A stretch of 64,000 bases of DNA, from assembly GCF_036507355.1 (NCBI RefSeq), contig NZ_AP027877.1; one strand, given 5' to 3'. Within the stretch, counting starts at the first letter, position 1. Each line of letters begins with the position of its first letter. The notes below the pieces were generated by a model. The model was given only the letters and a program-made list of their open reading frames with translations. It had not been told where the DNA came from and made no database searches. Of the stretch, positions 53,640-57,877 are shown piece by piece. The translations under genes were made by a program, and so were the position numbers. Source of the stretch: Escherichia coli (lineage in GTDB: Bacteria; Pseudomonadota; Gammaproteobacteria; Enterobacterales; Enterobacteriaceae).

Positions 53640-54626
53640 TTAACCGAAGCGAACATCTCGTCCATGCGGTTCATCGAGATCCTGCCACGGACCAATTGAA
53701 ATAATCCCCGTAGGGTTGATGGTCTTATGACTGCGGAAGTAATGATTACGGATATGATCGAAATTGACTGTTTCGGCAATTCCCGGCATCTGGTAGATAT
53801 CACGCAGGAAGCCATACAGATTAAGGTAATCGCTGATGCGGTGCTTATCACACTTGAAGTGGGTCACATACACTGGATCAAAACGGACCAGCGTGGTCCA
53901 CAGGCGAATATCGGCTTCGGTTAGCTGGTTGCCGGTCAGGTAACGATGCTGACCTAAAATCTGTTCCAGTCGCGCCAGCGATTCAAACACTTTCTCCACC
54001 GCTTCATCGTAGGCTTGCTGGCTGGTGGCAAAACCAGCTTTATACACGCCGTTGTTAACGGTGTCATAAATCCAGCCGTTAAGTTCGTCAATTTTCGTTT
54101 GCAGGGCTGGTGGGTAGTAATCACCAGCTTTCGCGCCCAGCGCATCAAACGCGGTATTAAACATGCGGATGATTTCTGCTGATTCGTTGCTGACGATGGT
54201 GTGGTTCTTTTTGTCCCACAGCACGGGAACAGTAACTCGTCCGCTGTAGTGTGGATCGGCGTGGAGATAAAGCTGATACAAAAATTCATGTTGATAGAGC
54301 GTGTCTCCGGTTGCTCCCGGAAAACTGTCATCAAAGGTCCAGCCGTTTTCCAGCATCAGCGGGTTCACTACGGAAACGGAAATAAACGGTTCCAGTCCTT
54401 TGAGTTTGCGCATGATCAGCGTGCGGTGCGCCCACGGGCAGGCGAGTGAAACATAGAGATGATAACGATCTTTCTCTGCGATAAAACCGCCTGTGCCAGT
54501 GGGGCCAGGAGCGCCATCGGCAGTGAGCCAGTTACGAAATGCGGAAGCTGAACGTTGAAATTTACCGCCGGTAGATTTGGTATCGTACCAGGTGTCATGC
54601 CAGACGCCGTCAATCAGTTGACCCAT
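53640..54626 (-). CDS. yqjG: Glutathionyl-hydroquinone reductase YqjG (Xi-class GST)
   Basis: ORF 53640..54647; start placed at MGQLIDGVWHDTWYD (328 aa). Confidence 0.88.
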   Translation of the reverse strand: MGQLIDGVWHDTWYDTKSTGGKFQRSASAFRNWLTADGAPGPTGTGGFIAEKDRYHLYVSLACPWAHRTLIMRKLKGLEPFISVSVVNPLMLENGWTFDDSFPGATGDTLYQHEFLYQLYLHADPHYSGRVTVPVLWDKKNHTIVSNESAEIIRMFNTAFDALGAKAGDYYPPALQTKIDELNGWIYDTVNNGVYKAGFATSQQAYDEAVEKVFESLARLEQILGQHRYLTGNQLTEADIRLWTTLVRFDPVYVTHFKCDKHRISDYLNLYGFLRDIYQMPGIAETVNFDHIRNHYFRSHKTINPTGIISIGPWQDLDEPHGRDVRFG

Positions 54627-54695
54627 TTTTCTCTCCTCCAATAGCAAAAACGAGGAGCTTCCTCCTCGTTTTTTATCGTTAAGTATAGCGCGTGC

Positions 54696-55088
54696 TTACC
54701 ACTTTTTATTCAGCAGGCGGTCGATGCTATACGCGCCCGGACCGGTAATTGCCAGCAGCAGGAATCCGCCAGAAATTGTCAGGTTTTTCATGAACATCAG
54801 CGAGTTGACGCCTTCAGCAAAGTTGCTGTGAAATAAAAATGCCGTCAGCAGCGTAAAGCCCGCAGTAAACAGGGCTGTGGTGCGAGTCAGGAAACCGAAC
54901 AGGATTGCCAGACCACCACCAAACTCAAGCAGAATCACCAGCGGCAGCATAAAACCCGGGACGCCCATCGCTTCCATATATTGTTGGGTACCCGCGTAAC
55001 CAGTAATTTTTCCCCAGCCTGCGGTAATAAACAGAATCGGCATTAAAATGCGCGCTACCAGTACACCAACATCTTCTAATTTTTTCAT
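54696..55088 (-). CDS. yqjF: DoxX-family inner membrane protein YqjF
   Basis: ORF 54696..55178; start placed at MKKLEDVGVLVARI (130 aa). Confidence 0.8.
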   Translation of the reverse strand: MKKLEDVGVLVARILMPILFITAGWGKITGYAGTQQYMEAMGVPGFMLPLVILLEFGGGLAILFGFLTRTTALFTAGFTLLTAFLFHSNFAEGVNSLMFMKNLTISGGFLLLAITGPGAYSIDRLLNKKW

Positions 55089-55273
55089 CATACTCTCCAC
55101 TGCGCCACTCAGGCTGCTGATTGTTTTTTTGTGCAAGGGCGCGGTATTAGCGTCGTTGCTGTCGATGGAGAGAATCATAAACGTGGTGAATGATGATTGT
55201 TAGCAAGGAAAACTGTCAAAAATCTTCAAAAAATTTGATGGGTAAGGCCGGAATGGCTCCGGCCAGAGGGAAG

Positions 55274-55573
55274 TTAACCGCGAAGCTGTTGCTGCTTGAG
55301 GGTCGTTTTAACCAGACGCCAGGCGCTCCATACGCCAAAACCGCGTCTGGCCCAGCGGACCAGCATATTAGGATGGCGAATCGTCCAGATCGCCATCACG
55401 CTACTGCCAACCAGCGCCCAGGAGCGCAGACTTAGCAGCATATTCCAGCGACGATCGTAAGCGCCTGTTGCCTCCAGCCATTCACGACGACTGGCGGAAA
55501 GATCCAGCCGTTGTTGCTGGATCTGGCTAAGCAGTTGCGCCTTACGTCGTTCACGTTCGACTTTACTGCTCAC
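55274..55573 (-). CDS. yqjK: Uncharacterized protein YqjK
   Basis: ORF frame 55274..55675; probable GTG start giving MSSKVERERRKAQLL (99 aa); overlaps the yqjE 3' end. Confidence 0.7.
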   Translation of the reverse strand: MSSKVERERRKAQLLSQIQQQRLDLSASRREWLEATGAYDRRWNMLLSLRSWALVGSSVMAIWTIRHPNMLVRWARRGFGVWSAWRLVKTTLKQQQLRG

Positions 55574-55967
55574 GGGACTCCTCCTCGAGCAGCTGCCGAT
55601 CGTTTGCCAGCTCATGGCGTGTATGGCGCAGCAAGGTGGATTTACGCGATTTACGTAACGTCCAGATACCGCCAATCAGTGCCAGTAGCAGCAACACCAC
55701 GGTGGTGGCAATCATCGCATTCAGGCGATATTGCGGATCAACCGCCCAAATAATTAGCACCATCAGGCTCATAAGACCAAATGCAGCGAAAAGCATCGTC
55801 AGGCCCAGCATCAGTAAAAGTTGAAAGAGATTAGCTTTTTCCTCTTCCAGCTCCACCACCGCCAGCCGCAGACGTGTTTCCACCATTTCAACCATGATGG
55901 AAACAATTCGCTGCCCGATGCCCAGAACGCTTTTACCGGGCCCTTGCGCGTGATGAGTGTCCGCCAT
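55563..55967 (-). CDS. yqjE: Inner membrane protein YqjE
   Basis: ORF 55563..56036; start placed at MADTHHAQGPGK (134 aa). Confidence 0.8.
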   Translation of the reverse strand: MADTHHAQGPGKSVLGIGQRIVSIMVEMVETRLRLAVVELEEEKANLFQLLLMLGLTMLFAAFGLMSLMVLIIWAVDPQYRLNAMIATTVVLLLLALIGGIWTLRKSRKSTLLRHTRHELANDRQLLEEESREQ

Positions 55968-55969
55968 AA

Positions 55970-56275
55970 TTAACGACGCGACAGCAGAACGCCGAGCACT
56001 ACACCGATTGCAGCGCCAATGCCCACGCCCGTCCATGGATTTTCACGCACATACTCATCGGCACGCGCCGCCGCGACACGGGTTTGTTTGGCGATGGCAT
56101 CACCGGTTTCACCCAGGCGATAACGGCTCTGTTTCAGTGCCTGCTCCGCTTTGCTACGAATCTTACTCAACTCTTCTTTCGACTTCTCGCCAGATGAGCT
56201 AAGCACCTCTTCCAGCGTATCGGAAAGGGATTTCAACTCAGCACGCAGATGTTCCGTAGTGTGTTCTTTCGACAT
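55970..56275 (-). CDS. yqjD: Ribosome-associated membrane protein YqjD (ElaB family)
   Basis: 101-aa ORF with C-terminal transmembrane anchor; recognised as YqjD. Confidence 0.85.
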   Translation of the reverse strand: MSKEHTTEHLRAELKSLSDTLEEVLSSSGEKSKEELSKIRSKAEQALKQSRYRLGETGDAIAKQTRVAAARADEYVRENPWTGVGIGAAIGVVLGVLLSRR

Positions 56276-56312
56276 AGTTTTCTCCAGGTGAGTAAGTAGT
56301 GACTATTGTGAG

Positions 56313-56681
56313 TTAGTAGTCGCGCGCTTCCAGCTTTTTCAGCTCTTCCTGCGCTTCTGCCAGTTTCCGTTCGCGTTTGGCAATCTTATCGGCATCGCCT
56401 TTTTGCTTCGCCTCGGCTAAATCTTGCTGGCGTTCCGCCACCTCATCTTTCTGCTTTGCGATTTTCTTCTGATGATCGGCACGCAGCTGGCTATCTGAAC
56501 AGTTGGCCCGGACTTCACTCAGGGCTTTATTCAGACCGTCAATACGATTCTGGTTTTGGTGTTTTTCGGCATAGCTGATTTCCTTAAGGATATTTTGCTC
56601 CTTTTCCTGACACAGGGTAGTGGCATAACTACCGGCACTAAGAGCAAAAAGAGAAACAGCTAAAGCGATGCGGTATTTCAT
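56313..56681 (-). CDS. yqjC: Periplasmic protein YqjC (DUF1090)
   Basis: ORF 56313..56696; start placed at MKYRIALAVSLFALSAGSYA (signal peptide). Confidence 0.8.
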   Translation of the reverse strand: MKYRIALAVSLFALSAGSYATTLCQEKEQNILKEISYAEKHQNQNRIDGLNKALSEVRANCSDSQLRADHQKKIAKQKDEVAERQQDLAEAKQKGDADKIAKRERKLAEAQEELKKLEARDY

Positions 56682-56827
56682 TCTTGAACCTTCCATTGTG
56701 ATTCGGACCTATTACAAAGGAACGATTGTCCAGACAACGAAGCGGTAGTGTTAACCACCGCCTCATTAATCATAGACAGTTACGGTGAAATCACCAAAGT
56801 GGGTGATCTGTTTCGGATAACAGGAAG

Positions 56828-57211
56828 TTATCCGAAGCGATGAGAGTTATCCCGTAGCCGGGTCAGCCACTGCATAGCCTGATTGTTATTGTCCTGCTGC
56901 GCAATGATGTAGCCTTGGGGCAATGTTCTGTCGAGGACCGCTTTTGCAGCGGCGCTCTGGTCGCTGGAGTCAAAGGTAATTAACAGAGTGTCGTTTTTGG
57001 GGGTGATACTTTTGAAAGGAATGCCATGAGCGTCAAGGTGATGCCAGATTGAAAAACCGTCTGGCATCGTTGTGCCTTGATGAACGGCACGAATCGCCAG
57101 CGTAGACTCTTGCTGGCGAACCGCGGACCAGGCCAGCAACAGCGTGCCGACCAGAAGTAAAACAGCGCCGGACCAGGCTAGCTGGCGAAGCGACATGCGA
57201 GGTATTTGCAT
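56828..57211 (-). CDS. mzrA: Modulator of EnvZ/OmpR, MzrA (YqjB)
   Basis: 127-aa ORF with N-terminal transmembrane segment; synteny. Confidence 0.8.
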   Translation of the reverse strand: MQIPRMSLRQLAWSGAVLLLVGTLLLAWSAVRQQESTLAIRAVHQGTTMPDGFSIWHHLDAHGIPFKSITPKNDTLLITFDSSDQSAAAKAVLDRTLPQGYIIAQQDNNNQAMQWLTRLRDNSHRFG

Positions 57212-57214
57212 CCC

Positions 57215-57877
57215 TTACCCCCGATTTCCATATTTCTTTTTCCATAACACGACCAGAGAACCTGCCAGGCCAAACACCAGCAGCACCACCGGGAGCAGCA
57301 TCAGGCATGACATCAGCTGGTCCTCGTACTTTAAAAATACCGGCGTTTTGCCGAGCATGTAACCCAGAGTTGTCAGGATCAATACCCACAGCAGACCGCT
57401 CATCCAGTTGAAAAACTGAAAGCGCGCGTTATTCAGCCCTGATAACCCGGCAATCGTCGGCAGTAGTGTTCTGACAAACGCAATAAAGCGACCAATTAAC
57501 AGCGCCGATAAACCGTGTTTATGAAAAAGATGGTGTGCGCGTTGATGATAATGCGCGGGTAAATGAGATAGCCAGTTTTGTACGGTGCGGGTATTGCCCA
57601 GCCATCGCCCCTGAATATAGCTGACCCAGCAGCCGAGGCTGGCGGCAACGGTCAGCAGCAGAATCGTTTGCGGATAGCCCATCGCGCCTTTCGCAATCAA
57701 CACGCCGACCAATACCAGTAAACTGTCGCCCGGTAAAAAGGCCGCCGGAAGCAAGCCGTTTTCAAGGAACAAAATTACAAACAAGACAAAATACAACATG
57801 CCAATCATCGATGGATTGGCCAGGGTTTCAAAATCCTGCGCCCACAGGGCTTGCAGCAATTGGGTCAAAAGTTCCAT
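57215..57877 (-). CDS. yqjA: DedA-family inner membrane protein YqjA
   Basis: 220-aa hydrophobic ORF; recognised as YqjA. Confidence 0.88.

Follow-up and report, generated by a model that had tools for sequence, protein, structure and literature searches.

The region analysed here, part of a 64,000-nucleotide stretch of Escherichia coli DNA (the window), is best explained as the distal part of the known yqjCDEK stress/stationary-phase operon. We consider this reading as a whole very probable, including the reality of the annotated yqjD, yqjE and yqjK starts, the tight junctions between the genes and the translation scheme that we propose for them. The trio, its starts, its gap and its overlap belong to an already annotated operon and hold nothing new; the main outcome is that the reference annotation is sound, and the locus is otherwise of little consequence. 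A modest but useful addition concerns yqjE, which in every species compared has no Shine-Dalgarno sequence and stands right against the yqjD stop codon; this suggests that its translation may depend on that of its upstream neighbor.

All three genes lie on the minus strand. The yqjD coding sequence occupies 55970-56275 (-), from an ATG at 56273-56275 to a TAA at 55970-55972, and encodes 101 amino acids; yqjE follows at 55563-55967 (-), from ATG 55965-55967 to TAA 55563-55565, and encodes 134; yqjK, at 55274-55573 (-), opens on GTG 55571-55573 and encodes 99. At the first junction (TAA-TT-ATG, 55965-55972, -), a 2-nt gap at 55968-55969 separates stop from start. At the second, the genes share 11 nt (55563-55573, -), read as GTG AGC AGT AA in the yqjK frame and as (C)GT GAG CAG TAA in that of yqjE. 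A preliminary description of this DNA had claimed just such a trio, with a 2-bp gap and an 11-bp overlap, and the RefSeq coordinates agree with it exactly. These coordinates are the same in strain PS10-3, in one O157:H7 strain and in K-12 MG1655. In the last of these (NC_000913.3), the genes are b3098 (yqjD, 3249375-3249680), b3099 (yqjE, 3249683-3250087) and b3100 (yqjK, 3250077-3250376), with order, start codons, gap and overlap identical to those of the window. The window comes from a different E. coli strain than MG1655, and the segment is 99.9% identical between them with no substantive difference; the YqjD, YqjE and YqjK protein sequences are the same. Of the 5426 complete E. coli genomes, 5422 contain the segment at an identity of at least 95%, and the other four lack it. 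Its matching places in E. coli genomes number 5424, one of them plasmid-borne, and one genome carries two copies.

The open reading frame list that accompanied the DNA opens each frame at the first start after a stop, and it had been said to over-extend all three genes. This is so for yqjE, whose listed frame of 157 amino acids begins 23 codons before the coding sequence at ATG 56034-56036, and for yqjK, whose frame of 133 amino acids begins 34 codons early at TTG 55673-55675, but not for yqjD, whose frame equals the annotated 101-residue coding sequence. The frames of neighboring genes also exceed their RefSeq coding sequences: yqjF by 160 to 130 amino acids (54696-55178, -), yqjG by 335 to 328 (53640-54647, -), and yqjC, a DUF1090 gene annotated at 56313-56681 (-), by 127 to 122 (frame 56313-56696, -).

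Comparison with relatives supports the annotated starts of all three genes. Our comparison set held 80 loci from distinct Enterobacteriaceae species, with YqjK identities of 70-96%, and the window brings it to 81. The yqjD ATG stands at the homologous position in all 81 loci, 76 of which have no in-frame start upstream of it. It is preceded at a distance of 6 nt by a Shine-Dalgarno core, GGAG (56282-56285, -), which overlaps the published CsrA site BS4 and whose duplex with the anti-Shine-Dalgarno is worth -6.4 kcal/mol in the window, equal to the median over the 81 loci. The YqjD N-terminal peptide MSKEHTTEHLR has been reported, with Ribo-RET and INRI support, in the class of database-annotated starts (PMC13245402 Table S1, TRAINSPOTTER).

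The yqjE ATG is likewise invariant across the 81 loci. In distant YqjE homologues of 129-137 amino acids, residues 1-10 align onto residues 1-10 of the E. coli protein, so that these proteins start where the annotated one starts, and the N-terminal peptide MADTHHAQGPGKSVLGIGQR, beginning MADTHH at the annotated methionine, is recorded as a database-annotated start in the same N-terminomics table (PMC13245402 Table S1, TRAINSPOTTER). Could yqjE instead begin 23 codons upstream, at ATG 56034-56036 inside yqjD, and yield a product of 157 amino acids? The frame is open, and 60 of the 81 loci retain a start codon at -23. That ATG, however, takes its A from the last base of a conserved YqjD proline codon and its TG from the tryptophan codon that follows (CCN TGG), so its presence is fixed by yqjD coding and is a by-product rather than a sign of use. 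Upstream starts are missing altogether from 18 of the 81 loci, and in 14 a stop closes the frame within 22 codons; the best that the -23 ATG can offer a ribosome is a duplex of -2.2 kcal/mol at a spacing of 16 nt, which is not a usable Shine-Dalgarno, and the extension does nothing for the Pfam domain score. Together with the observed peptide, this comparative and Shine-Dalgarno evidence leads us to reject the 157-residue product, which we regard as improbable in the extreme.

For yqjK, the preliminary description had proposed a GTG start within the 3' end of yqjE, and several kinds of evidence bear this out. The homologous site holds a start codon in 81 of 81 loci: GTG in 51, ATG in 27 (as in E. 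albertii), TTG in three (two Superficieibacter and one unclassified Enterobacteriaceae MAG) and CTG in none. An in-frame stop lies no more than three codons upstream in 54 loci, which rules out a longer yqjK frame in these species, and no more than 13 codons upstream in 62; no alternative upstream start exists in 64. Four nucleotides upstream of the GTG is a Shine-Dalgarno sequence, GAGGAGGAG (55578-55586, -), which doubles as Glu-Glu-Glu codons of yqjE and whose anti-Shine-Dalgarno duplex, at -11.8 kcal/mol and a spacing of 4-5 nt, is the strongest anywhere in the operon. It is conserved among relatives, with a median of -9.3 kcal/mol over 78 loci, 92% of which lie at or below -6. YqjK is absent from the N-terminomics Table S1 of PMC13245402, and no start-site data for yqjK appear in the tables of that study, in the supplements of INRI-seq (PMC9825163) and Salmonella riboproteogenomics (PMC11005335), or in PMC5576327. 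The assignment of GTG 55571-55573, which is also the curated start, is supported by species comparison, the Shine-Dalgarno sequence and curation.

Two starts further upstream would give longer YqjK proteins: ATG 55613-55615, at codon -14, for 113 amino acids, and TTG 55673-55675, at codon -34, for the 133 of the full frame. The frame is open in E. coli, some automatic annotations use such starts, and database entries of 113 or 123-124 amino acids exist (for example P0001), but the 99-residue form predominates in database clusters of YqjK. Neither upstream codon has a Shine-Dalgarno sequence (+1.9 kcal/mol at -14 and -1.5 at -34), and neither is often kept, with a start at -14 in 11 of the 81 loci and at -34 in 10; the stops noted above interrupt the frame in most species. 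Even within Escherichia, the frame is closed by a stop at -12 in one locus (L004), and the -14 start is missing from another (L012); in E. coli this -14 ATG spans His-Glu codons of yqjE. We reject the 113- and 133-residue products on this comparative and Shine-Dalgarno evidence and give an upstream start of yqjK very little credence.

The preliminary description had also named conservation of the overlap in related genomes as a check: the close abutment of the genes is kept, but the 11-nt overlap itself is not general. Spacing at this junction is -4 nt in 47 of the 81 loci (GTGA, ATGA or TTGA), -1 nt in 12 (for example TAATG), -11 nt, the E. coli form, in 11, -8 nt in seven and +2 nt in four. 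The -11 class includes six Escherichia loci (counting the window), Citrobacter amalonaticus, C. sedlakii, one further Citrobacter genome and Intestinirhabdus. Aligned with the -4 class, it is set apart by a 1-nt indel that falls between the Shine-Dalgarno sequence and the yqjK start. As a consequence the TGA is not in frame with yqjE, which runs on for two codons to a TAA supplied by codons 3-4 of yqjK (AGT AAA). The conserved trait of the yqjE/yqjK junction is tight abutment and not a length of 11 nt. At the yqjD/yqjE junction, the spacing is +2 nt in 64 loci, +1 nt in 15 and -1 nt in two.

Conservation of the three genes as a group reaches far outside the enterobacteria. Four distant loci with YqjE identities of 34-50% (L084, L086, L089 and L091) keep the triad, with gaps of 1-3 nt and yqjK overlaps of 1-8 nt. 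A fifth, L090, at 27% YqjE identity, has all three genes with looser called junctions (a 14-nt gap and a 26-nt overlap). These distant loci agree with the published conservation of yqjD-yqjE-yqjK synteny (bioRxiv 10.1101/2024.08.16.608256). Two further records deserve mention. In L088 (logan ERR3448462_170, 1501-1905), a YqjE homologue of 29% identity stands without flanking DUF883 or YqjK genes, and a CsbD/DUF883_C gene lies about 300 nt downstream of it. An assembly titled Chryseobacterium sp. 18061 (CACSKA010000008.1, L037) contains an enterobacterial yqjDEK locus whose yqjE/yqjK junction is one base off that of Citrobacter sp. 18056 (L030), and this record is probably mislabelled or contaminated.

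How might ribosomes use these junctions? Genes coupled by termination-reinitiation must overlap or lie a very short distance apart, and such coupling is enriched in the subunits of heteromeric complexes (PMC10666635). The operon has the geometry of coupled pairs: its genes share a strand, with +2 nt between yqjD and yqjE and -11 nt between yqjE and yqjK in the window, the latter spacing being -4 or -1 in most relatives. The junctions leave no room for a promoter, and a hairpin follows yqjK. We found no measurement of coupling for the yqjDEK operon in the literature; the coupling of yqjK to yqjE that the preliminary description drew from their overlap is a reasonable inference and not a result. 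The passage from yqjD to yqjE makes the stronger case for coupling, and a cleaner candidate for obligatory termination-reinitiation, than the overlap that had been emphasised, because yqjE lacks a Shine-Dalgarno sequence and opens 1-3 nt past the yqjD stop. At the yqjE start, the anti-Shine-Dalgarno duplex is +1.1 kcal/mol in the window and ranges from -1.7 to +1.5 over the 81 loci, not one of which has a Shine-Dalgarno sequence there. The same absence extends to the four distant relatives with tight junctions (-1.5 to +0.9 kcal/mol), and in these and all 81 loci no more than 3 nt separate the yqjE ATG from the yqjD stop. Spacings of -8 to +6 are treated as efficient for reinitiation (PMC10666635), and by that measure the yqjD/yqjE layout is a configuration of efficient reinitiation, while the E. 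coli yqjE/yqjK overlap of 11 nt falls outside the range.

We propose that translation of the operon would begin with de novo initiation at the moderate Shine-Dalgarno sequence of yqjD, which is CsrA-repressed according to published work. Lacking a Shine-Dalgarno sequence and beginning 2 nt past the yqjD stop, yqjE would most likely be served by ribosomes fresh from termination on yqjD, and YqjE output would then be tied to that of YqjD. At yqjK, where the GTG overlaps the last 11 nt of yqjE and follows a strong Shine-Dalgarno sequence, terminating ribosomes may be recaptured, fresh 30S subunits may be recruited, or both. The strength of this Shine-Dalgarno sequence makes independent initiation possible, so that coupling at the second junction is plausible and not required. 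Such tight packing would fit synthesis of the proteins in fixed proportions, possibly for one membrane complex.

An alternative that we take seriously, and rate as somewhat short of probable, is that yqjK is translated independently of yqjE, from its own Shine-Dalgarno sequence and with or without an internal transcript, the 11-nt overlap being mere compact packing. It is favored by the conserved Shine-Dalgarno sequence just described, the operon's strongest, and by transcription start sites that global mapping predicts upstream of yqjE and yqjK (as cited in PMC10746276), which would let either gene be translated without reliance on the one before it. The spacing of the E. coli genes beyond the efficient range points the same way, as does the drift of the overlap among relatives, from -11 through -8, -4 and -1 to +2, because such drift implies that no single geometry is required. 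Against this alternative, yqjK start and yqjE stop region overlap in 77 of 81 species, and in the other four the start lies 2 nt past the stop. Any ribosome that terminates on yqjE is therefore positioned over the site of yqjK initiation, and tight junctions persist at YqjE identities of 34-50%.

A more specific form of coupling would place the yqjK start in a hairpin, in which Leu-Leu codons of yqjE (GCUGCUCG) pair with the yqjK start region (UGAGCAGU) and hide the GUG until translation of yqjE melts the stem. In E. coli the 110-nt segment 55534-55643 folds to -42 kcal/mol (z = -3.5 against shuffles), and the hairpin at 55565-55593 (-) holds the yqjK GUG in its stem and an AGGAG core in its loop. 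Across 77 species, however, the proposed partners pair in 71.9% of cells against 71.8% in column shuffles, the covariation score of the hairpin is 0.127 against 0.128, and RNAalifold finds no consensus structure around the yqjK start; the pairing is accounted for by conserved codons. With neither covariation support nor an RNAalifold consensus in these species, we reject the hairpin as a conserved coupling element and think it quite improbable that it hides the GUG as described. A search of Rfam with window positions 54500-57500 gave no match at E <= 1.

Family assignments agree with the RefSeq names, and so with the gene identities given in the preliminary description. YqjD matches Pfam DUF883 (PF05957) at residues 8-60 (49.5 bits against a cut-off of 25.4, 4e-13) and the DUF883_C glycine-zipper membrane anchor (PF19029) at residues 72-101 (57 bits against 27, 1.4e-15). 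Against the NCBIfam ElaB equivalog NF007709 it scores 92.5 bits, under the cut-off of 139, and its NCBIfam matches are sub-threshold hits of the ElaB/YgaM type only; the same search found no family for YqjE, YqjK or YqjC. Because its score falls below the ElaB cut-off, YqjD is a paralogue of ElaB rather than ElaB itself; it is C-tail-anchored and a paralogue of YgaM as well, and the earlier term 'ElaB-family' is acceptable as a family label only. YqjD is reported to associate with ribosomes and the membrane and to inhibit translation (bioRxiv 10.1101/2024.08.16.608256; PMC10746276). YqjE matches Phage_holin_3_6 (PF07332) at residues 19-127 (75.8 bits against 28.4, 3.5e-21). Its gene has no phage genes around it and belongs to a conserved operon of the chromosome, between yqjC and yqjF. 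The same setting is seen in distant relatives and does not fit the holin of a phage lysis cassette, and so 'holin' is here a family name and not a demonstrated function. The 99-residue YqjK matches its own Pfam family (PF13997) at residues 14-86 (88.3 bits against 28.1, 4.5e-25). None of the longer reading frames gains in Pfam score. The three products are best explained as small inner-membrane proteins.

The setting of the trio also fits published accounts. Both yqjCDEK, with yqjC as its first gene, and yqjDEK are described as transcription units, partly from prediction, and a sigma-S promoter of yqjD lies inside yqjC, with transcription starting 101-105 nt upstream of the yqjD ATG (PMC10746276); this start maps to about 56376-56380 in the window. 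The leaders of yqjC and yqjD are sites of translational repression by CsrA, whose binding site BS4 overlaps the yqjD Shine-Dalgarno sequence (PMC10746276). At the other end, 10 nt after the yqjK stop, lies a GC-rich hairpin with a 7-bp stem (GGCCGGA-GCCAU-UCCGGCC, 55246-55264, -), followed 14 nt further on by a U-run. Its U-tract is thus displaced, and a consensus terminator scan after yqjK called none; in relatives the matching place is taken by stable hairpins that are not homologous to it. The transcription unit probably has its 3' end at this hairpin, which would be a terminator or a stabilising structure. Between yqjK and yqjF, a promoter-like element (TTGACA-18 nt-CATCAT, 55190-55219, -) with 10 of 12 matches is consistent with yqjF having a promoter of its own.

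The yqjD/yqjE junction has a practical bearing on studies of YqjD in ribosome hibernation. Because the yqjE start has no Shine-Dalgarno sequence in any species compared and lies directly at the yqjD stop, mutations, deletions and reporter fusions in yqjD are predicted to have polar translational effects, and would probably shift the level of YqjE and perhaps that of YqjK. One could go further and suppose that YqjE is made solely by ribosomes finishing YqjD, that YqjD, YqjE and YqjK form a fixed-ratio membrane complex assembled co-translationally, and that the 1-nt indel of Escherichia, in lengthening the overlap from 4 to 11 nt, retunes its stoichiometry. We offer this extension as speculation and consider it unlikely.

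The arrangement described here resembles two known systems. Pseudomonas aeruginosa PA3040-PA3042 (PMC11302039) comprises, like yqjDEK, a DUF883 YqjD-like gene, a YqjE-like gene of the holin family and a small third gene, in an operon that responds to envelope stress and stationary phase. According to that study PA3042 has no recognised domain, which leaves it at most a candidate homologue of YqjK. In the coupled overlapping pairs of Huber et al. (PMC6728339, PMC10666635), stop and start lie on the same strand and overlap or stand 1-2 nt apart, as they do in yqjDEK, and the canonical coupled forms, GTGA or ATGA at -4 and TAATG at -1, make up most yqjE/yqjK junctions among relatives. The E. coli yqjE/yqjK junction is set apart by its 11-nt overlap, longer than the common -4, -1 and -8 classes, and by the strong Shine-Dalgarno sequence of yqjK. 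The partners in such coupled pairs are often subunits of the same complex, and an interaction between YqjE and YqjK is likewise predicted (PMC10746276).
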